Shown here in pieces: positions 666-52,135 of a stretch of 64,000 nucleotides of DNA. The DNA comes from Candidatus Gastranaerophilales bacterium. Lineage in GTDB: Bacteria > Cyanobacteriota > Vampirovibrionia > Gastranaerophilales > Gastranaerophilaceae. The first letter of the stretch is position 1, and each line of letters opens with the position of its first letter. The position numbers were made by a program, and so were the translations under genes. The notes below the pieces were generated by a model that saw only the letters and a program-made list of their open reading frames with translations, searched no databases and was not told where the DNA came from. The stretch lies in assembly GCA_944325585.1 (NCBI GenBank), contig CALVAS010000001.1, positions 7,283 to 71,282 of the forward strand. The letters are read 5' to 3'.

Positions 666-694
666 TTGATTATTAATAATATTTCCGTTATAAT
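666..694 (+). promoter_or_regulatory. Sigma70-type promoter of mini-ORF locus 1 (TTGATT-17-TATAAT)
   Basis: -35 at 666..671, -10 at 689..694. Predicted TSS near 701, at GAGGGTAAG. Confidence 0.5.
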
Positions 695-770
695 AAATTT
701 GAGGGTAAGTTCCAAACACCTCCCCTGTCACAGACAGTTTACGAAGAAAACGACAGAAAGGAGGTGCATA

Positions 771-845
771 ATGAAAAGGCGAATAATAAAAGATGCCCTA
801 ACGCTAATAGGACATCTCTTACAAATTATTTCAATTTTCTTATAG
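771..845 (+). CDS. 24-aa hydrophobic mini-protein (type I toxin-like), copy 1: MKRRIIKDALTLIGHLLQIISIFL
   Basis: SD GGAGGTG (760..766) lies 4 nt before the ATG. 5'-UTR CACCTCC-c-CTGTC (717..729) is complementary to GACAG-aaa-GGAGGTG (752..766). Paralogous to the ORFs at 47024..47098 and 36847..36918. Confidence 0.6.
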   Translation: MKRRIIKDALTLIGHLLQIISIFL

Positions 846-895
846 GGAACGAAGAACGGGTTGGATGTAAACGGCATTCCAATCCGTTTCCCTAT
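783..895 (-). ncRNA. Antisense sRNA (antitoxin-like), copy 1
   Basis: Minus-strand promoter TTGACA(929..924)-16-TATAAT(907..902). Stem TAGGGAA...TTCCCTA. Terminator hairpin at 791..817 (inside the mini-ORF) followed by a U run. The ends are predicted, not measured. Confidence 0.5.
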
Positions 896-948
896 ATGTA
901 TATTATAACCTCTTTTTTGACTTTGTCAATCCATGTGCAAAAGTATGA

Positions 949-3608: not shown

Positions 3609-6158
3609 ATGGAAAATCTACTTGAAAATCTTAACAAGGAGCAGAAAGACGCTGTTCAAACGGTTAAAGGCCCGCTGTTGATACTGGCAGGAGCCGGAAG
3701 CGGAAAGACAAAAGTTTTAACAACAAGGATTGCCTATCTTGTGCGTCAGGGTGTGCGTCCGAAAGACATTTTAGCCGTAACATTTACCAATAAAGCCGCA
3801 AAAGAAATGAAAGAACGTCTTGGAAATATTTTGGGCGAAAATACCGTAAAATTTATGTGGGTCGGCACTTTCCACGGAATTTGCGGAAGGATTCTGCGTG
3901 AAAACATTGACAACTACAACTTCCAGTCAGGCAAAAAACTGGACAAAAATTTCTCAATCTATGACGAAACCGACAGCGTTGCGGTGATTAAGCAGGCTAT
4001 CAAAAAGCTTAACCTTGATGACAAAGTTTATCAGCCAAAACTCGTTAAATCAGTTATTTCCAATGCAAAAAACAAAATGCAGGATGCATACACATTCGCA
4101 ACCTTTGCAAGAGATTTTAAGTCCCAAAAAATTGCCTCAATTTATGAAGAATACGAAAATGCTCTCAACAACAACAATGCAATCGACTTTGACGATATGC
4201 TTATGCTGACCGTAAAACTTCTTGAACAAAACGCTCAGGTCAGAGAATATTATTACAACAGATTTAAGCATATTCTTGTCGACGAGTATCAGGACACAAA
4301 CCTTGCGCAGTACAGATTGGTTAAAATGCTCTACACAAACAACCTGACTGATGTTTCTGAAGAACGTTCGCTTTGCGTTGTTGGTGATGTCGACCAGTCA
4401 ATTTACAGCTGGCGAGGCGCAGATTATACGATTATCCTGAACTTCCAGAAAGACTTCAAAAACACAAAAGTAATCAAACTGGAACAAAATTACCGCTCAA
4501 CCGCCAATATTTTGAATGTTGCAAACGCAATTATAGAGAACAATACCGAACGTGTGGACAAAGTTCTATATTCTAATAAGGGCGAGGGCGAAAAGATAGA
4601 TTATTACGAAGCGCAGGACGAAGCGGACGAAGCAAACTTTATTGTAAGCCGTATCAAGCAGGATTCCGGCGGGGATTACAACCGCTACGCAATCCTTTAC
4701 CGTACAAATTCGCAGTCACGTGCGCTTGAAGAAGCCTGCATGGCCGCCTCAGTGCCATATAGAATTTACGGCGGCTTAAAATTCTATGACAGAAAAGAAA
4801 TTAAAGATATTATTGCATACTTAAAACTTATCTACAATACTGACGACAGCCAGAGCTTCCGCCGTATCGTGAACGTTCCAAAACGTGCAATAGGCGACAC
4901 AACAGTAAAAAATCTTCAGGATTATGCGGACAAATTCGATATTTCGCTTTTTGCGGCCGCCGAAAGAATCGACGAAAACAGTGATATTCCGCCAAGAACC
5001 CGCTCCAAAATCAAAGATTTTGCAGAATTGATTTTGAAATTCAAAGACGCACAAAAGAATTATTCATTGCAGGAATTTGTGACACTCGTAATCGAAAAAA
5101 CAGGATATCTGGCAGAACTTCAGGCGCAGAACACACCTGAAAGCGAAGCTGATATTGAAAACCTTCAGGAACTTGTAAACGTTGCGGGCGAATTTGTACC
5201 CGAAGACAGCGAAAATGTCTTAGGCGAATTTTTACAGCAGGTTGCCCTTGTGTCAGACACGGACAACCTTGACAATATCGCAAACAACGTAACTTTGATG
5301 ACTTTACACTCAGCAAAAGGTCTGGAATTTCCGATAGTATTTCTTGCAGGCTGCGACGAAGGTGTTTTCCCGCACCAGAGAACGTTTAATGTGCCTTCCG
5401 AAATGGAAGAAGAGCGAAGACTGATGTATGTAGGTGTTACAAGGGCAGAAGAAAAACTTTACCTGACATCAGCCAAGCGCCGTCAGATGTGGGGAGAATA
5501 CAAATATTACAACCCCTCAAGGTTTATTGAAGAAATTCCGCGCCAGCTTTTGGAAATGACTTCATTTGAAGGCTCGACAAGCGGTTCTTCAACATTCCAG
5601 AATGCGGTTTCCAAAGCCAGAACAGGCAAATCCGACTACAATTACTCAGCAGCACAGGCCGACAGCTACGGTTATGTAAAACCCTCAAGCGGATTCGGTA
5701 AAGGCTTTGTCGCCCCGACAAAAGGGCTTGCCTCGGGCGGTAAAACAAATACAAGTTCTGGCACTCAACAGCAAAAACAAACTTACGGCAATTACAGCCA
5801 GCCTCAAAGAACTCCTTCCCGCACAATTTTGGTCAAAAACAAAGTGAACAAAGAGCGGGATGAAGAAAAAGTAAAAGAATTCTTTAAAGACAACGCAATC
5901 AAAAGAATGCTCGAAGAACGCAACAAGCAGGCTGCAGAACAAAAACAGAAAGAACAGGAAAAAATTGAAAAAGAACAGAGTTCGCCTGTAGTAGAGTATG
6001 TTTTTAACGAAGGTGAACGTGTTTTTCACGAAAAACTCGGAATCGGTCACATCAAAGAAGTTATTCATGTAGGTGACAGCATGATGTACACGATAGACTT
6101 CGGCAAACAGGGCGTCAAGGCTATGGATGCGGCGTATGCCAAGTTGAAGAAGTTTTAG
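3609..6158 (+). CDS. pcrA: ATP-dependent DNA helicase PcrA/UvrD
   Basis: AGAGSGKT, DEYQDTN and QNYRS motifs. The C-terminal low-complexity linker plus Tudor-like end (GERVFHEKLGIGHI) is typical of PcrA. ATG 3609 follows a GGGAG SD. Confidence 0.9.
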   Translation: MENLLENLNKEQKDAVQTVKGPLLILAGAGSGKTKVLTTRIAYLVRQGVRPKDILAVTFTNKAAKEMKERLGNILGENTVKFMWVGTFHGICGRILRENIDNYNFQSGKKLDKNFSIYDETDSVAVIKQAIKKLNLDDKVYQPKLVKSVISNAKNKMQDAYTFATFARDFKSQKIASIYEEYENALNNNNAIDFDDMLMLTVKLLEQNAQVREYYYNRFKHILVDEYQDTNLAQYRLVKMLYTNNLTDVSEERSLCVVGDVDQSIYSWRGADYTIILNFQKDFKNTKVIKLEQNYRSTANILNVANAIIENNTERVDKVLYSNKGEGEKIDYYEAQDEADEANFIVSRIKQDSGGDYNRYAILYRTNSQSRALEEACMAASVPYRIYGGLKFYDRKEIKDIIAYLKLIYNTDDSQSFRRIVNVPKRAIGDTTVKNLQDYADKFDISLFAAAERIDENSDIPPRTRSKIKDFAELILKFKDAQKNYSLQEFVTLVIEKTGYLAELQAQNTPESEADIENLQELVNVAGEFVPEDSENVLGEFLQQVALVSDTDNLDNIANNVTLMTLHSAKGLEFPIVFLAGCDEGVFPHQRTFNVPSEMEEERRLMYVGVTRAEEKLYLTSAKRRQMWGEYKYYNPSRFIEEIPRQLLEMTSFEGSTSGSSTFQNAVSKARTGKSDYNYSAAQADSYGYVKPSSGFGKGFVAPTKGLASGGKTNTSSGTQQQKQTYGNYSQPQRTPSRTILVKNKVNKERDEEKVKEFFKDNAIKRMLEERNKQAAEQKQKEQEKIEKEQSSPVVEYVFNEGERVFHEKLGIGHIKEVIHVGDSMMYTIDFGKQGVKAMDAAYAKLKKF

Positions 6159-8786: not shown

Positions 8787-8877
8787 GGAGGAGTGCCAGA
8801 GCGGTTTATCGGAGCGGTCTTGAAAACCGTCGTACGTGACGAGCGTACCGTGGGTTCGAATCCCACCTCCTCCTCCA
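8787..8877 (+). tRNA. tRNA-Ser (anticodon UGA), class II with long variable arm, CCA encoded
   Basis: Acceptor GGAGGAG/CTCCTCC. Anticodon loop CTTGAAA. Variable-arm hairpin GTACG…CGTAC. T arm GTGGGTTCGAATCCCAC. Confidence 0.9.
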
Positions 8878-11690: not shown

Positions 11691-11807
11691 ATTATGTCAA
11701 GAAAATTTTACAAATCCGTACGCGGCAGTTGTAAAAAATAAGATGTCCAAATAGACAATTAGAATTTTTCATTGTATATTTTTATTAAAATTAAATACAA
11801 AAATTTT

Positions 11808-11890
11808 CTAGGGTTCCGCGGTTTTGCCGGCTGGTCCGAGAGAAAATTCACAAAAATTTTGTGTACACGGAAGGATAAAAACCTGGGAGA
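11808..11890 (+). promoter_or_regulatory. Guanidine-I riboswitch (ykkC-yxkD class, subtype 1)
   Basis: CTAGGGTTCCG…GGCTGGTCCGAGAG…ACACGGAAGGATAAAAACCTGGGAGA matches the ykkC consensus blocks. A Gdx/SugE gene follows. Confidence 0.85.
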
Positions 11891-11916
11891 TAATTTTATC
11901 TCTCAGGTTTTTTATA
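11882..11916 (+). terminator. Riboswitch expression-platform terminator
   Basis: CCTGGGAGAT-aatttt-ATCTCTCAGG plus T6. The 5' arm overlaps the aptamer 3' block, which predicts an ON switch. Confidence 0.75.
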
Positions 11917-36673: not shown

Positions 36674-36846
36674 ACCCTTATATTAACATGAACACAATTT
36701 GTGTTTAAGACTAAATGAAATATTAATAATATTGACAGAAATCAAACAAAAATATATGGATAAATTGTGGGTAGGCCCTTATCACCTGTTATTCTGAAAG
36801 CACGAACTATAAATTTGTTAAACTTTTAGAAAGGGGGTGATATAAT

Positions 36847-46776: not shown

Positions 46777-46873
46777 AAATGTTAAATTTCGGTCAGCCAC
46801 AGTCATCCTGAATTTATTTCAGGATCCCTTTGAGATACTGAAACAAGTTCAGCATGACCGAAATTTAACATTT
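46777..46873. repeat. 97-bp nested palindromic element (MITE/REP-like)
   Basis: Perfect 19-bp terminal inverted repeats aaatgttaaatttcggtca (46777..46795) and tgaccgaaatttaacattt (46855..46873). They enclose two inverted copies of a roughly 24-nt hairpin unit (gtcatcctgaatttatttcaggat / atactgaaacaagttcagcatgac). Confidence 0.6.
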
Positions 46874-46954
46874 GAGAAATTTCGTCTGAATATTAAATCT
46901 TGCGCAACTATATGACTAAAGTTTGAAAAAAGATAATTCGATTATCCTAACCAC

Positions 46955-46982
46955 TTGAAATTTATAAAAAGTAAGTTATAAT
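46955..46982 (+). promoter_or_regulatory. Promoter of antisense sRNA copy 2 (TTGAAA-16-TATAAT)
   Basis: -35 at 46955..46960, -10 at 46977..46982. Confidence 0.55.
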
Positions 46983-46988
46983 AAATAT

Positions 46989-47085
46989 AGGGTGGGTGCT
47001 CTGCTAAGCACCCGTTACAGACCCTAAATGAATAACGAAATTATTTGTAAAAAGAGCCCTACTGCATTTAGGACTCTTTTTATTA
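46989..47085 (+). ncRNA. Antisense sRNA (antitoxin-like), copy 2
   Basis: 5' stem TAGGGT…ACCCTA enclosing GGGTGC…GCACCC. Hairpin AGAGCCCTA…TAGGACTCT (47053..47077) plus a U run. Fully antisense to the 3' two-thirds of the mini-ORF. Confidence 0.5.
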
Positions 47086-47098
47086 TGTCCGTTTTCAT
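47024..47098 (-). CDS. 24-aa hydrophobic mini-protein (type I toxin-like), copy 2: MKTDIIKRVLNAVGLFLQIISLFI
   Basis: SD GGAAAGGAGGTGA lies 7 nt before the ATG. 5'-UTR CCCTCC (complement of 47150..47155) is anti-SD. 13/24 residues are identical to copy 1. Confidence 0.55.
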   Translation of the reverse strand: MKTDIIKRVLNAVGLFLQIISLFI

Positions 47099-47186
47099 CT
47101 TCTCACCTCCTTTCCACCCATGTTACAGTATAGTGTTTGATGTGTAGTTGGAGGGATTCGGTCTTACCCTATATTAAATTATCAGA

Positions 47187-50100
47187 TTATTTTTCGGGAT
47201 TAAGCTCTCTCAGAACTCTGTCAAGGCAGGCATTCGGCGAGTATTGCCATTCACGGAAGGTTATTCTGTTTACCTTAAAACCGCAGCGTTCCAGTATTGC
47301 CTGTTTTTTCATTGAGGGCATTGTTGAGGAAATTTTGTCTTCCATACCGTCAACTTCAATAACTATCTTGTCATCAACAAGTAAATCCGCAGACAATCCG
47401 GCAATTTCTGCACCTGCCTGAACTTTATGCCCCCGTTCTCTGATTTTGGATGCGATAATCTGTTCAAGTTCGTTTTTGTAAGTGTTTTCGGCAATATCTC
47501 CTGAAAGCATTGCCTGACGCATATTTTGATAATGTTTCAGAAAGTTTATATAATTTCTGAAATGCCCTTCCGGAAGTTCTGTCGGGTCTTTTGAGATAAA
47601 ATTGATAACTTTATTTCTGGCACGGGTAACGGCAACGTTAAAGAGGTTGGGCTTTTGAAGGAAGATAAGGCTTTGCGGGAAACTGTTGTTTGCAATTGCC
47701 CAGCTTATGAGCATAATATCTCTTTCGTCCCCCTGGAATGTATGTGCCGTACCAATTTCAATCTGATGTTTCTTAATCATGTGATCCGAAAGAACTTTGG
47801 ATAGAGAAACTTTCAACTGTTCAACCTGCGCACGGAACGGGGAAATAATTCCGATAGAAACAGGATTGTCAGGATTTTTGCGCTCGTCCTCAATAACAAT
47901 TTCATGAACACGTTTGACAACCGCTTCGATTTCAGGAAGATTTCGGGTTGCGTCAGCATCAACTTTTCCGTCTTTAACTTCTTCAAGTTCAAGTACAAGA
48001 TCATCCGACTTATCTTTTCGCATAACACGAATTCTGTCATTGTAGAACTCGTGGTTTGAGAAGTTGATAATCGGCGGAAGGCTTCTGAAATGTTCGTCAA
48101 GCATAACGGAATTTATTGAATAATAATCCGCAAGGTCGAACATAGAATTTGTTCTGAACCTCCAGATGAGCTGGTATTTGTCGGGAATTCCGTACTGGCT
48201 GAGGAAAGATTGTTCTTTCGCTTTTTCAAGGAATGAAAGATGCGGAAGCTGTTTGTCATCACCGACGATTACGGCTCTTTTGGCACGGAAAAGTATCGGG
48301 AAACAGCTTGCAATATCGCATTGAGAAGCTTCGTCAATAATTGCAACGTCAAACATGCCGGGCTTTAGCGGAAGGGAATCCGAAACGGCATAAGTCGTTA
48401 CACACCAGCAGGGGAAAGCTTCAAGAAGCGGTTTAAAATCTTCTTCTTCGAGAATATTTGTCTGCTGGCGCTTGCGGTTCGAGATAAGAGATTTTGCGTG
48501 GATTTTCAATCTTCTGCACTTGTTTTCATCCCTCAGAAGTGCTTTAAGAGCCTCACGGCGTTTGTTTTTGAGAATATTCACAGCAAGTTTTGGCTGTTTC
48601 TTTTTCATCTGGCGGATTTGCTCGGACATAATGTGAAGGTTGCCGAGTGCCTGAATCTGTTCTTCGACGCTGTTCATATCACAAATCTTTGCGGCAAGCT
48701 GAAGTTCTTCTGCCAGTTTGGAAAGATTTTGAGGAGTCGCATCAAAGTCTTTCATTTCAAGGATTTTTTTCAGCTGCGAAAGCGTTGTAAAATTCGTAAA
48801 TTTGCTGAAAATTCCTGATTTTTGAATGTTTTCACGAAGAGTTTTGAGAGTATTTCGGATTGCCTCAACCTCATTTTTCTTCAAGTTCCGTCTGATAAAG
48901 ACCGATTCGGGGTGAAGTGCGCTTTCTTCCTCGGCTTCGATTGATTTTTCTCTCCAGATTTTTTCGAGTTTTATAATCTGTTCGCACTTTTCTTCTGTTT
49001 TGCGCAAGATATCAAGATGGTTTTTCATATCATCAAGGTCTGCAAAAAGCGCATCTTCAAAGCCGCTGTCAAGCGACGAATGCTCTGCAATAAGCGCATT
49101 AAGTTCATTGCTCAAAGAACGCTGATAATTCAGACGTCCCGCACGAAGCGCCATATGGCTTGCGCCAAGAGCATTAAGCCTTTCAGCCACAACGTCAACG
49201 GCTTTGTCCATTCGAGATGCGACAAGAACAGTTTTGCCGTTTGCAACAAGATGGGCAACCAGATTCACGATAGTTTGCGATTTACCTGTTCCCGGAGGCC
49301 CCTGAACAGCTACAAACTTCGTATTATCTATGTTTTTGATAACCTGCTGCTGGGTATCTGACAGAGAAAGCGGGGTTATCGGATAAAATTCCTTTATAGC
49401 ATTGATATCTTTTATCGGAACTGATTTTTCTTTGCTCTGCGCAAATTCTTCGTTAATTATGCTAAGAGCCGTTTCTCTGTAAATTCCGCTCGGCTGCTCG
49501 GCAATTCTGGTGAGTTCATGAAGAACACCCGCCGTCATTGAAGGACGTTTTGTCAAAATGATGGCGCTCTGATAAGTTACTGAAATTTTTTCCAGCTTAA
49601 CCCTTTGTTTCTGCGCATTTTCTTCGTGTTCAATTACATCTTCAATGTTTTCACCGTCGATTTTTTCTTTGTAAAAATCTTTTTCGTTAGTTTTGGAAAT
49701 ATTGTCTTCTGTTTCGTAATCGGATTTGTTATATGAAATCTCGACTTCCGGAACAAGGGATTTAAGAGTAGTCAAAAATATATTGAGTTTTTCTTCCGTT
49801 ATAGGAAGCTCCGGCACAACGTCAAGAAGCCCTTCAAGCATAATATCAGTTTCATCTTCGTCATCAGACTTTCTCATTAAAGCCGCCAGTGCTCCTGTGT
49901 TCAGCGACAAAACCTCATCCAGCGGAAGACAGTTGATATTTACACCGTTTCGCTCCAGCTTGCAGGGCATATATAATAACGGAGTCAAAAATTCATTCTG
50001 CCGTTTTGATTTATTGCTTTTGCCGACAAGAAACAAATAGCCGTAAATTAAGTATTTATCTTTTGAACCGAGTTCACTCTGGAGCATAAGTTCAGTCAAT

Positions 50101-50321
50101 TTGCTGTCTTTGCCGTCAAGGGAAATGTATTCTTTATTTTGCGTAAAAAGTTCTTCTTCTTCCGGAAGAAAAATCCATTTGTTATCCTTGTCGCCCTTAA
50201 GGTTTCTGAAAGTTGAGCTTTTAACCTCTTCTCTCACACAGTCGTGAAGATACTGGCTTAATTTTTTTATAAAACTGTTGTTAAATGCCGAATTTAGTGC
50301 TTTTGTTGCTTCCTGTAACAT
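47187..50321 (-). CDS. SF1 (Upf1/DNA2-like) helicase with DUF4011-like N-terminus and C-terminal DUF559/Vsr-like endonuclease domain (Hhe-like)
   Basis: Walker A GPPGTGKS, IIDEASQ, VGDDKQLP, TAHTFQGDERD and VAVTRARNK. The C-terminus …LLVDDKIVIEVDGMEDK…RCGFKVNRITFREW resembles the DUF559 restriction-endonuclease-like fold. Confidence 0.7.
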   Translation of the reverse strand: MLQEATKALNSAFNNSFIKKLSQYLHDCVREEVKSSTFRNLKGDKDNKWIFLPEEEELFTQNKEYISLDGKDSKLTELMLQSELGSKDKYLIYGYLFLVGKSNKSKRQNEFLTPLLYMPCKLERNGVNINCLPLDEVLSLNTGALAALMRKSDDEDETDIMLEGLLDVVPELPITEEKLNIFLTTLKSLVPEVEISYNKSDYETEDNISKTNEKDFYKEKIDGENIEDVIEHEENAQKQRVKLEKISVTYQSAIILTKRPSMTAGVLHELTRIAEQPSGIYRETALSIINEEFAQSKEKSVPIKDINAIKEFYPITPLSLSDTQQQVIKNIDNTKFVAVQGPPGTGKSQTIVNLVAHLVANGKTVLVASRMDKAVDVVAERLNALGASHMALRAGRLNYQRSLSNELNALIAEHSSLDSGFEDALFADLDDMKNHLDILRKTEEKCEQIIKLEKIWREKSIEAEEESALHPESVFIRRNLKKNEVEAIRNTLKTLRENIQKSGIFSKFTNFTTLSQLKKILEMKDFDATPQNLSKLAEELQLAAKICDMNSVEEQIQALGNLHIMSEQIRQMKKKQPKLAVNILKNKRREALKALLRDENKCRRLKIHAKSLISNRKRQQTNILEEEDFKPLLEAFPCWCVTTYAVSDSLPLKPGMFDVAIIDEASQCDIASCFPILFRAKRAVIVGDDKQLPHLSFLEKAKEQSFLSQYGIPDKYQLIWRFRTNSMFDLADYYSINSVMLDEHFRSLPPIINFSNHEFYNDRIRVMRKDKSDDLVLELEEVKDGKVDADATRNLPEIEAVVKRVHEIVIEDERKNPDNPVSIGIISPFRAQVEQLKVSLSKVLSDHMIKKHQIEIGTAHTFQGDERDIMLISWAIANNSFPQSLIFLQKPNLFNVAVTRARNKVINFISKDPTELPEGHFRNYINFLKHYQNMRQAMLSGDIAENTYKNELEQIIASKIRERGHKVQAGAEIAGLSADLLVDDKIVIEVDGMEDKISSTMPSMKKQAILERCGFKVNRITFREWQYSPNACLDRVLRELNPEK

Positions 50322-50432
50322 TATGACTCCTCTTTAATCCCCTTTTTATAAAATATTGCAGTTTTATTTTTCAACATGCCGCAAGGGGTTAAGTTATTCC
50401 ATTTTTTACCATTTTACGCTAAAATCAGTATT

Positions 50433-51611
50433 ATGAACATCATCAGTTTAAACGATACTTCAAAATTATACCTTGTCGGCGGAGTTGTAAGAGATGAACT
50501 TCTCGGGATTAAGTCGCTTGATGTCGATATTGTTTACGAAGGCAGCGTCATCGAGGATATCGAAATGCTCCGGCAATCCCAAAAGGATGTCCTTTTAAAC
50601 CTGTTTCAAAAACTCTATGACATTAACATTCAGCCTGAAAAAAACGACATTGAAGTTGTCCGCACAAACCCCGATTTCGGAACGGTTCGTGTTAAACTTT
50701 CAGGGCAGGAAGTCGATATAGCCTCAACCAGAACAGAACGCTATGACCGCAAAGGCCATCTTCCGCAGGTCGAAAAAATTGGCTGTTCCTTACAGGAAGA
50801 CGTTATGCGCAGAGATTTTACGGTTAATTCGCTATACAAATCATTATCCACAGGTGAAATTTTTGACTTCACAGGCGGGCTTGAGGATTTGAAAAACAAA
50901 AAACTCCGTGTCTTGCATGATGGCAGCTTCATCGATGATCCGACAAGAATTATCCGTGCTCTCAAATTTTCCCACCGTTTCGGTTTTGAATTGGATGGCA
51001 AAACTCTTGAATTGCGTGACGAATATTTGAAAAATATCAACTACGATATGTGTTATAAACGCATAAAAAAAGAACTGATTGAAACTCTGGGCCTGAACAG
51101 TGACGAAGTTTTCAAGCGGTTTATAAAAGAAAAAATTTACAAACTCATAACTGAAAATGAAGTTGAATTACCCGCAAATTCTCCGGAACAATTAATCAAA
51201 AAATATGCGCCCGATTCAGAAAATATATGGTTGATTTATGCAGGAATTTTAAGGGATTTGTCACGCCTTGAATTGACCAGAAAAGAGCAGAAAATTCTTG
51301 ACGATTTCACCGAATTAGAAAATCAAAATCCGCAAAATGATTTTGAAATTTACAAAACCTTTGAAAATAAAGAGGTTGAAAGCATAATACTTTATGCTAT
51401 TTTAAAAGACGAAAATACTGCACGGCATTATCTGGATAATTTAAGACAGATTAAAGTCCGAATTACAGGCAAAAATCTGGAGATGATGGAAATCGAGCCC
51501 TCACCGAAATACAAAGAAATTTTTGATTCTATTTTGAAAAAGAAACTTGAGAATCCGGAGCTGACGCTTGATGATGAAATTGCGGAAGTAAAAAGAGAAT
51601 TTTTAAATTAA
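50433..51611 (+). CDS. cca: tRNA nucleotidyltransferase / poly(A) polymerase family (CCA-adding enzyme)
   Basis: LVGGVVRDELLG…DVDIV and RRDFTVNS. Start trimmed to ATG 50433. Confidence 0.8.
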   Translation: MNIISLNDTSKLYLVGGVVRDELLGIKSLDVDIVYEGSVIEDIEMLRQSQKDVLLNLFQKLYDINIQPEKNDIEVVRTNPDFGTVRVKLSGQEVDIASTRTERYDRKGHLPQVEKIGCSLQEDVMRRDFTVNSLYKSLSTGEIFDFTGGLEDLKNKKLRVLHDGSFIDDPTRIIRALKFSHRFGFELDGKTLELRDEYLKNINYDMCYKRIKKELIETLGLNSDEVFKRFIKEKIYKLITENEVELPANSPEQLIKKYAPDSENIWLIYAGILRDLSRLELTRKEQKILDDFTELENQNPQNDFEIYKTFENKEVESIILYAILKDENTARHYLDNLRQIKVRITGKNLEMMEIEPSPKYKEIFDSILKKKLENPELTLDDEIAEVKREFLN

Positions 51612-51736: not shown

Positions 51737-52135
51737 GGGGACGTTTTGGATTTGACAGGATGTTTCGGTTGGAACAGGCTGCGGGTCCGTGCGCTGTTCA
51801 CGGTTATCAACGAGCAAAACAAATTAAATGCTAACAACGTAGTTGAAGCAGACTTCAGCAGAGCATATGCAAAAGCTGCCTAGTTTGCGATTATAGCTAC
51901 TCATAGAGCCCAGCTTGCCGGTTTTATGGGTCCATTATGCAAGCGCAGTACGTCAATGACGGTAGACGTATCCAGATAACCGTCAGGGGTTTAGAGTTTC
52001 CCTTAAATAAAACCTTGGGCTGATTTATAAGGTTCTGATTTTCCCCCGAATCAGCCGAGAAAATGAAAATCTACACTCGTAGACGTCGGTTACAATCCAT
52101 TTTGGACAGGGGTTCGACTCCCCTCGTCTCCACCA
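51737..52135 (+). ncRNA. ssrA: tmRNA (SsrA); tag reading frame 51830..51883 encodes ANNVVEADFSRAYAKAA*
   Basis: 5' GGGGACG pairs with 3' CGTCTCC-A-CCA, including the G3:U pair. T-arm GGGGTTCGACTCCCC. Resume codon GCT followed by an ANN… tag. Confidence 0.92.

Follow-up and report, generated by a model that had tools for sequence, protein, structure and literature searches.

Directly behind the stop codon of a helicase gene, within a 64,000-nucleotide stretch of a Candidatus Gastranaerophilales genome (contig CALVAS010000001.1; the whole stretch is referred to as the window), a 24-codon open reading frame (ORF) on the minus strand faces a promoter on the plus strand, which raises the question of whether this short segment is a genetic unit of its own or the untranslated end of its neighbour. 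A preliminary description of the window had proposed a type I toxin-antitoxin (TA)-like module whose convergent small RNA (sRNA) terminates at a hairpin within the ORF. The comparative evidence supports this proposal. The feature is real, and its assignment to the type I class is supported in a sequence-level sense, namely as a peptide gene together with an antisense RNA gene that has the potential to pair with its transcript. We consider it probable that the segment, designated copy 2, belongs to a multi-copy family of type I TA-like cassettes that is restricted to Candidatus Gastranaerophilales (Melainabacteria). This lineage falls within the Cyanobacteriota/Melainabacteria group. The window holds a second member of the family, copy 1 (Table 1).

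A family of cassettes in Gastranaerophilales

Copies 1 and 2 are the only cassettes detected by nhmmer within the 64-kb window. They share the order of their parts as well as the spacing between the -10 hexamer and the box at the mRNA 5' end, and their peptides are identical at 13 of 24 positions, as had been counted before. Scans with degenerate DNA patterns built on the Shine-Dalgarno (SD) sequence and the peptide matched one viral contig, 19 genome contigs and 16 metagenome contigs, all of which carry the complete cassette (zero false positives), and provided 35 further instances from Candidatus Gastranaerophilales/Melainabacteria genome bins and human-gut metagenomes. Nearly every genome match, 'Clostridium sp. 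CAG:967' included, bears a Candidatus Gastranaerophilales or Melainabacteria title, and the metagenome matches come from human gut samples; a gut melainabacterium is accordingly indicated as the source of the window. Ten divergent copies, added by nhmmer and from the flanks of helicase homologues, bring the total to 45 further instances in other sequence records; the mini-ORF occurs next to some orthologous helicases and elsewhere. Two contigs bear tandem arrays of three cassettes (L008, about 3738-4633; L009, 529-1335), in which the peptide and the repeat sequence differ from cassette to cassette. No match to the cassette was obtained in a plasmid collection (tblastn) or a phage collection (blastn), and the Rfam scan gave no family at gathering score in the window, with only chance-level matches (E ≥ 0.44) at 46850-47250.

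Several further observations concern the contigs and their surroundings. The cassettes of the L008 array are separated by a repeated spacer that starts with ATGAATGAACAAAAATTTACATCC. L008 and two other cassette-bearing contigs (L011 and L019) are filed under Muribaculaceae or Methanomethylophilaceae bins, but probably consist of Gastranaerophilales DNA that was assigned to the wrong bin. The motif TAATAATATT (often TTAATAATATTTCC) is located 97-132 nt 5' of the ATG in 16 of 35 cassettes; it occurs in the window at 672-690, where it lies within the promoter spacer of copy 1, and again at 36724, as well as upstream of the cassettes L006, L009, L010, L012, L014, L015, L017, L024, L025 and L030-L032, and it could represent an operator or an UP-like element. 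Elsewhere in the window, the Rfam scan points to a tmRNA (51737-52135), a guanidine-I riboswitch (11797-11891) and a tRNA (8787-8874).

A short hydrophobic peptide behind an invariant Shine-Dalgarno sequence

In the core family, all 23 unique ORFs comprise exactly 24 codons with invariant start and stop, and the encoded peptides follow the pattern MK..IIK..L...G..LQII[SA].[FIL]. The least variable codon position is position 2, and the ratio of nonsynonymous to synonymous differences (pN/pS) is 0.46 in frame, compared with 0.66 and 1.22 in the other two frames. This pattern, in which substitution is of the coding type in frame only, supports a coding role for the ORF. The peptide of copy 2 has a cationic N-terminus followed by 15 hydrophobic C-terminal residues, with a grand average of hydropathy (GRAVY) of approximately 2 for residues 10-24; from residue 10 to the end, the family peptides range from 1.9 to 3.1. 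In the divergent copies the RNA scaffold is kept, whereas the hydrophobic peptides, now of 22-28 residues and located at the same place behind the same SD, are very different (for example, MKRKAVKSAIKALIALLQIVILFM, MREVIKKVLRLIGLLLTLIAELM and MVDKIIMLLLAFSIAVIALKLIQL). All of these start with charged or polar residues and are strongly hydrophobic in the remainder. Every copy presents a perfect SD followed by a hydrophobic ORF of 22-28 codons.

It is conceivable that the ORF is incidental, and that the products are structured non-coding RNAs or the cassette a selfish repeated element with two promoters. The better conservation of the RNA scaffold than of the peptide across divergent copies, the repetition of the cassette, also in tandem, and the recurrence of the TAATAATATT motif upstream are compatible with such a scenario, but it leaves unexplained why a hydrophobic ORF follows a perfect SD in every copy, why substitutions are of the coding type in frame and not out of frame, and why the SD is invariant and the target of a conserved sequestering helix (see below); we regard it as quite improbable. 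A 39-codon ORF on the plus strand (47028..47147) was rejected as a coding candidate, since it lacks an ATG in 12 of 38 cassettes checked, varies in length and extends beyond the sRNA terminator.

Predicted mRNA folding sequesters the Shine-Dalgarno sequence and joins the two ends

Structural features were counted over 35 unique cassettes. The predicted mRNAs fold considerably more stably than shuffled sequences, with z = -6.3 (copy 2) and -5.2, and in 34 of the 35 minimum free energy (MFE) folds the SD is paired with an upstream anti-SD of the CCUCC type. Directly inside the SD helix is a stem of 4-5 bp, whose sequence depends on the locus while its pairing is kept (CUAC/GUGG, CUGAC/GUCAG, CUGUC/GACAG, CCGC/GCGG, CAGC/GCUG, CAAC/GUUG and CGGC/GCCG), with compensatory two-sided changes at three of four pairs. 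In a covariance-model alignment of the 5' untranslated region (UTR), 86% of the cells are paired, compared with 77.9% in shuffles (0/500) and at most 57% in slid controls, and a swap control of the anti-SD arm against the SD arm gave 0/5000 permutations. The SD itself does not vary between cassettes.

A second, long-range helix of at least 6 bp joins the 5' box of the mRNA to its 3' UTR in the MFE folds of 27 cassettes. Here, AGGGU pairs with ACCCU in the 3' tail, while the 4-6 nt that follow it form base pairs immediately behind the stop codon. The latter contact again changes from locus to locus, namely AGACC/GGUCU in copy 2, GUUCC/GGAAC in copy 1, and GCCC/GGGC, GUACC/GGUAC or CUUCC/GGAAG elsewhere. 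When boxes and post-stop segments were swapped between loci, own partners paired with -8.19 kcal/mol and foreign partners with -4.88 kcal/mol (0/5000 permutations). RNAalifold on a whole-cassette MAFFT alignment recovered the hairpin within the ORF and part of the 3' stem, and nothing more, because the 5' UTR is mis-registered in that alignment; the register was resolved by the covariance model and by the register-free swap tests. Comparison between cassettes thus shows pairing of the mRNA 5' end, an SD-sequestering hairpin and a co-varying inner stem, each as a property of the predicted transcript.

A locus-specific repeat as a proposed link between the antisense RNA and the initiation region

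Each cassette carries a word of 6-9 nt that is located 8-15 nt 5' of GGAGG and again 2-5 nt after the stop codon. The word differs between loci and matches within each, with at least 11 distinct sequences (CTGTAAC, CTGTGAC, TGCGAC, TGTGAAG, TACGAAG, GTGAAGAAA, GCGACAA, GAACGA, TACTAAG, ATGTGA and GTTAAGCAG). When the two sites belong to the same locus, their longest common word averages 7.4 nt, compared with 5.0 nt for sites of different loci, and the predicted duplex between the 5' UTR and the sRNA has -11.15 kcal/mol for cognate and -7.72 kcal/mol for non-cognate partners (0/5000 permutations). For copy 2 this duplex reaches -17.3 kcal/mol, the best among all partners. In the cassette behind a helicase homologue of 84% identity, CTGTAAC has been replaced by TGCGAC at both sites. 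Direct repeats on the same strand are unable to base-pair, so an opposite-strand transcript that covers both copies is needed to account for their co-evolution.

In 32 predicted sRNAs, the complement of the repeat resides in an internal loop, where its mean unpaired probability is 0.76, compared with 0.39 for the whole RNA. The preliminary description had located the repeat of copy 2 exactly and suggested that it lets the sRNA pair beside the SD. While the locus-wise co-variation agrees with such pairing, the seed proves to be shorter than was proposed: the conserved part is only the 7-mer GUUACAG in the sRNA internal loop, and the adjoining CACCC is buried in a stem.

The predicted antisense RNA, its terminator hairpin and the two promoters

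The best-conserved promoter, and indeed the best-conserved signal, of the cassette is that of the antisense RNA. In 34 of the 35 unique cassettes it occupies the same position and agrees with the consensus at 10 or more of 12 nucleotides, and in 27 at 11 or more, compared with a median of 9/12 for the sense promoters. In copy 2, the plus-strand promoter is present where it had been reported, and the poor -35 noted on the peptide side corresponds to a weak sense promoter. The other landmarks of the copy 2 mRNA (the 5' box, the anti-SD, the SD, the ATG and the stop codon) were all read as described previously, as was GATAAT, except that the gap between it and the helicase stop TAA (47189..47187) is 3 nt (tct) rather than 4 nt.

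The predicted sRNAs, of which 32 are distinct, are 95-142 nt long, with all but one at 116 nt or less. They share a design in which a 5' stem closed by AGGG/CCCU carries an apical hairpin of free sequence and an asymmetric internal loop, followed by a linker and the terminator hairpin inside the ORF, and they are perfectly complementary to codons 5-24 and the 3' UTR. The copy 2 sRNA is predicted to fold into stems AGGGU/ACCCU and GGGUGC/GCACCC and a terminal hairpin with a U tract (z = -3.6), in line with the stems and the length of roughly 97 nt originally proposed; the hairpin, which had been placed at 47053..47077, has slightly different limits for its core and its A/U extensions (Table 1).

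Across the family, four stem pairs of the hairpin within the ORF have undergone compensatory changes. The hairpin is followed by 7.1 T in 10 nt on the antisense strand and by 4.9 on the sense strand, so that some of the U tract is also present on the toxin strand, as had been cautioned. The richer antisense tract fits a main role as sRNA terminator, possibly with a partial attenuating effect on the mRNA, and the corresponding hairpin of the mRNA could serve both for partial attenuation and as a site of loop-loop contact. A consensus terminator scan flagged nothing at the copy 2 hairpin, because this hairpin contains one mismatch, and inspection of the hairpin loops by eye did not consistently find a U-turn motif like that of par.

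Additional elements surround the promoters. In a subgroup of cassettes (L002, L003, L008, L016, L019 and L021), the GGG box is preceded at a distance of 12-14 nt by GAAC-N-TTGAAA, and the closest -10-like hexamer is located approximately 30 nt upstream; the mRNAs of this subgroup may therefore have an extra leader of about 22 nt. Provided that the mRNA extends far enough, TTGAAA could pair with UUUCAA, to which the antisense -35 is complementary. Just 5' of the antisense -35 of copy 2 is a palindrome, GATAAT-TCG-ATTATC (46929-46943), which is kept in the orthologous loci L001, L004, L007 and L020 and could be the binding site of a regulator. Between a pilin-like gene and copy 2, there is a perfect 19-bp inverted repeat (46777-46795/46855-46873) that contains a second, imperfect hairpin of 25 nt. 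The pilin-like gene and this element look like a variable insert, because both are present in L007 and absent at the same site in L004 and L020.

Table 1. Positions of the cassette parts and of related features. Positions refer to the window unless a contig is named.
Feature	Position	Strand	Remarks
Copy 2 -10-like hexamer GATAAT of the peptide mRNA	47183..47178	minus	no good -35; AGGG box 7 nt further on
Copy 2 AGGGTAAG	47170..47163	minus	read from sequence
Copy 2 5' box AGGGTAAGACC	47160..47170	minus	mRNA 5' end or nearby; AGGGU pairs with ACCCU, AGACC with GGUCU directly after the stop (MFE fold)
Copy 2 anti-SD CCCTCC	47155..47150	minus	fold and covariance model
Copy 2 inner helix, 5' arm CUAC	47147..47144	minus	adjoins anti-SD; fold and covariance model
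Copy 2 upstream repeat copy (mRNA CUGUAAC)	47122..47128	minus	11 nt 5' of GGAGG; proposed second sRNA target
Copy 2 inner helix, 3' arm GUGG	47117..47114	minus	fold and covariance model
Copy 2 SD GGAGG, core of GGAAAGGAGGTGA	47110..47106	minus	read from sequence
Copy 2 ORF MKTDIIKRVLNAVGLFLQIISLFI	47024..47098	minus	24 codons + stop; ATG 47098..47096, TAG 47026..47024
Copy 2 hairpin inside ORF (codons 7-17)	47049..47081 with A/U extensions; core 47054..47076	both	predicted intrinsic terminator of the sRNA
Copy 2 post-stop segment GGTCTGTAAC	47014..47023	minus	GGUCU (partner of 5' box) and CUGUAAC (downstream repeat copy)
Copy 2 3' UTR hairpin GGGTGC-N8-GCACCC with tail ACCCTATA	46986..47013	minus	partner of the tail is the mRNA 5' end
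Copy 2 repeat pair CACCCGTTACAG / CACCCATGTTACAG	47009..47020 / 47115..47128		exact coordinates
Copy 2 antisense promoter TTGAAA-16-TATAAT	46955..46982	plus	11/12 consensus positions
Copy 2 predicted antisense sRNA, about 98 nt	46989..47086	plus	5' stem with 7-nt internal loop GUUACAG, linker, terminator hairpin
Copy 1 cassette	666..929	plus	order of parts as in copy 2
Copy 1 sense promoter TTGATT-17-TATAAT	666..694	plus	TATAAT 689..694; box at 702
Copy 1 ORF MKRRIIKDALTLIGHLLQIISIFL	772..846	plus	
Copy 1 repeat ACGAAGAA			
Copy 1 antisense promoter TTGACA-16-TATAAT	929..902	minus	12/12 consensus
Copy 1 predicted sRNA	about 895..783	minus	
Helicase and PolyA_pol/CCA-adding enzyme gene pair	47187-51611		
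Cassette of helicase homologue, 91% identity	L039 5137-5345		
Cassette of helicase homologue, 84% identity	L041 5196-5394		
Cassette of helicase homologue, 79% identity	L043 627-833		

The helicase is an inherited neighbour

The helicase that adjoins copy 2 is a superfamily 1 protein of 1044 residues with the domains AAA_11, AAA_12 and MTES_1575. Its earlier designation as an Hhe-like defence helicase is weakly founded, given that PADLOC matches PDC-S37 and MkoC more strongly than Hhe, the match to which is partial (residues 637-1041, E 1e-25). In all homologues examined (77-100% identity), the gene is divergently paired with that of a PolyA_pol/CCA-adding enzyme, a constancy that suggests a conserved core gene and not a mobile defence gene. 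In related bins, the helicase is 94.5-97.7% identical and the PolyA_pol gene 70-87%.

Whether homologues carry the same module at their 3' end, as had been raised for related genomes, depends on their distance. A cassette of the copy-2 type directly follows the stop codon at 94.5-100% identity and, with a changed repeat (peptide MKRDIIKRALNAVGLFLQMISLFI), at 84%, whereas at 91% the cassette in this place is of a different peptide type (MREVIKKVLRLIGLLLTLIAELM); no cassette follows the stop at 79%, where one is located beyond the PolyA_pol gene, or at 77%. The occurrence of different types behind the helicase in close relatives suggests replacement of cassettes or conversion between paralogues. 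The other approximately 30 cassettes have unrelated neighbours, and together with the clade-limited adjacency this indicates that the linkage to the helicase is a position inherited in one clade. A functional link between helicase and cassette as a trait of the family was accordingly rejected, as the neighbours vary and homologues of 77-79% identity have no cassette after the stop.

These comparisons also bear on whether the segment lacks a function of its own and simply provides the helicase gene with a 3' UTR and a terminator. The start of the segment 3 nt past the helicase stop and the poor -35 would suit such an origin, but the same cassette occurs with its own promoters in many contexts, including that of copy 1, the helicase homologues of 77-79% identity do without it, and the homologue of 91% identity has another peptide type at the site. 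Cassettes in other contexts and the exchanged peptide type refute this explanation in practice, and we assign it a negligible probability.

A model for the cassette and its weaknesses

The minus strand would give rise to an mRNA of approximately 190-200 nt for the 24-residue peptide, with a 5' UTR of about 70 nt in copy 2, and the strong convergent promoter to an sRNA of roughly 95-115 nt that would end at the hairpin inside the ORF. We suggest that the sRNA acts as the antitoxin, that it is made in excess and that it first contacts the mRNA via exposed loops. It would then form a duplex of approximately 95 bp with the distal part of the ORF and the 3' UTR, which would necessarily displace the mRNA 5' end and would probably be a substrate for RNase III. 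Via the repeat, the sRNA may also pair next to the SD and block ribosome entry, as RNA II does in the Enterococcus par system. The peptide, if made, would be expected to insert into the membrane and cause harm in the manner of ShoB and other type I toxins. The mRNA might become active through loss of the sRNA, through processing, or through co-transcriptional translation before the fold closes.

The 5' box of copy 2 (AGGGU and AGACC) is identical to two segments of the sRNA and has the same targets in the 3' UTR (GGUCU and ACCCU), so that a closed mRNA would be unavailable to the sRNA and vice versa. A bolder and more tentative extension, which we think possible though on balance doubtful, is that the mRNA carries a mimic of its own antitoxin, and that closure, together with one sRNA loop able to read two identical sites (near the stop codon and near the SD), forms a three-way competition switch between storage, decay and translation. 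As a separate matter, ShoB-like peptides may be an ancient type of toxin that was re-wired to unrelated RNA circuits in distant phyla.

A number of points weigh against the type I interpretation or parts of it. At the level of transcription, the sense promoter of copy 2 lacks a -35, so that the mRNA may need read-through from the helicase gene; the hairpin inside the ORF could terminate part of the sense transcripts; and the terminator scan detected no intrinsic terminator for the peptide mRNA. Closure of the 5' and 3' ends is missing from the MFE folds of 8 of the 35 cassettes, including copy 1. Within fixed alignment columns, only 57% of the repeat positions are paired, a value that is still above all shuffles and is low because loci differ by one position in register. 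Furthermore, the part of the sRNA that matches the 5' site is at the same time a perfect complement of the 3' UTR site; a single molecule cannot use it at both, and the role of the 5' site is one that we infer. Finally, the family peptides have no charged C-terminal tail of the kind found in many type I toxins, and the host organism is uncultured.

A related concern is that the peptide might be no toxin at all, but an antisense-regulated small membrane protein, such as one that modulates a transporter or membrane stress, with RNA controls that only tune its level. What the sequence evidence reveals is tight post-transcriptional control of a small hydrophobic peptide, not toxicity, and one family peptide has a faint match to the symporter small accessory protein model (E 0.04, below cutoff); searches of Pfam and NCBIfam gave no match for the family peptides, or for ShoB. 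Several traits, however, are characteristic of type I TA loci and not of small accessory proteins, namely the multiple copies and tandem arrays with fast-diverging peptides on a conserved RNA scaffold, the variable genomic neighbours, an antisense promoter that is stronger than the sense promoter, and the resemblance of the peptide to the toxin ShoB. We therefore consider a non-toxic function unlikely, and retain the type I TA-like cassette as the probable interpretation.

Comparison with known type I systems

The closest regulatory layout is that of par of Enterococcus faecalis pAD1 (Fst, RNA I/RNA II) and the related SprA1/SprA1as of Staphylococcus aureus. The par locus combines convergent promoters, a shared hairpin terminator, direct repeats read in opposite directions, an SD stem-loop and a 5'-end helix, and the repeats allow its sRNA to pair a second time, beyond the overlap, at the translation-initiation region (PMC7472228, PMC8594479). 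The cassettes described here likewise exhibit convergent promoters with a shared hairpin terminator, repeat complementarity near the initiation region through one repeat of 6-9 nt, an SD stem-loop (34/35) and a 5'-end helix (27/35), although this helix is long-range, with the 3' UTR, and not local and upstream. The overlap comprises only the terminator in par (PMC4147584, PMC8594479) but approximately 20 ORF codons and the 3' UTR in the present family, where the shared hairpin is located inside the ORF. Moreover, par has two repeats, DRa and DRb, over the start codon, whereas a single one is found here, beside the SD; the family peptide lacks the PXXXG motif, the tryptophan and the charged C-terminal tail of Fst and has no Pfam match; and the host phylum differs. 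Alignments of Fst with the family peptide reach a shuffle z of at most 3.3. The cassette family is not a member of the Fst/RNA II (par) family.

The peptide itself resembles ShoB of the Escherichia coli ShoB/OhsC system (MTDCRYLIKRVIKIIIAVLQLILLFL, taken from the K-12 record), with which it shares length, polarity and the motifs IKRV and C-terminal LQ[IL]I.LF[IL]. BLASTP aligns the two with 9 of 20 residues identical (E 4e-4, in a single comparison), and the shuffle z against ShoB is 5.8-9.3, compared with at most 3.3 for nine other type I toxins. A profile of the family matches ShoB in hhalign with a probability of 92%, over 22 columns of short hydrophobic peptides. The arrangement of the RNAs is distinct, as OhsC is divergent, 5' of shoB and non-overlapping (PMC2887945, PMC8594479), in contrast to the convergent sRNA found here, which overlaps the 3' end; likewise, the OhsC-type sRNA pairs with a long 5' UTR, compared with one of about 70 nt in the cassettes. 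ShoB homologues have been reported mainly from E. coli and Shigella (PMC2887945). Given this near-confinement and the divergent sRNA, the likeness may reflect either distant homology or convergence between short hydrophobic peptides.

With respect to the overlap, the cassettes are similar to bsrG/SR4 and txpA/RatA of Bacillus subtilis, in which the sRNA is on the 3' side and overlaps the ORF and 3' UTR by approximately 100 nt (PMC8594479). Binding of SR4 at the 3' end also changes the accessibility of the SD, and RNase III degrades the duplex (PMC4147584). Systems of this type are not known to have a repeat-based second pairing site such as that proposed here. Their toxins are longer (38-59 residues) and unrelated to the family peptide. 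In hok/Sok and in aapA1/IsoA1 of Helicobacter, long-distance pairing of the 5' and 3' ends closes the full-length mRNA and keeps it translationally inert, and the sRNA targets the 5' region and acts on the 3'-processed mRNA. Unlike in those systems, the perfect sRNA target in the present cassettes is the 3' region, which is also bound by the 5' end of the mRNA itself.

Within the cyanobacterial lineage, msoT1/msoA1 of Microcystis aeruginosa is a candidate type I TA system in which the sRNA overlaps the 3' coding end and the 3' UTR (PMC12390103). MsoT1 has 63 residues with two predicted helices and a sequence unrelated to the family peptide, and we are aware of no comparative RNA-structure evidence for this system. 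A full-text literature search returned no paper that links type I TA systems with Melainabacteria. To our knowledge, the type I systems described so far come almost exclusively from Proteobacteria, Firmicutes and Tenericutes, and msoT1/msoA1 is the single recent candidate from the cyanobacterial lineage (PMC12390103). The family described here would extend the type I class to uncultured, non-photosynthetic gut relatives of cyanobacteria. Its dozens of natural variants, with three co-varying RNA-RNA contacts, constitute a ready-made set of compensatory mutants, and because each locus has its own seed, the cassettes could serve as compact orthogonal RNA regulators. The comparisons support a new family in a new host lineage within a well-known class, in which a par-like circuit appears to be combined with a ShoB-like peptide, a combination that bears on whether toxins and their RNA controls co-evolve or are re-assorted.

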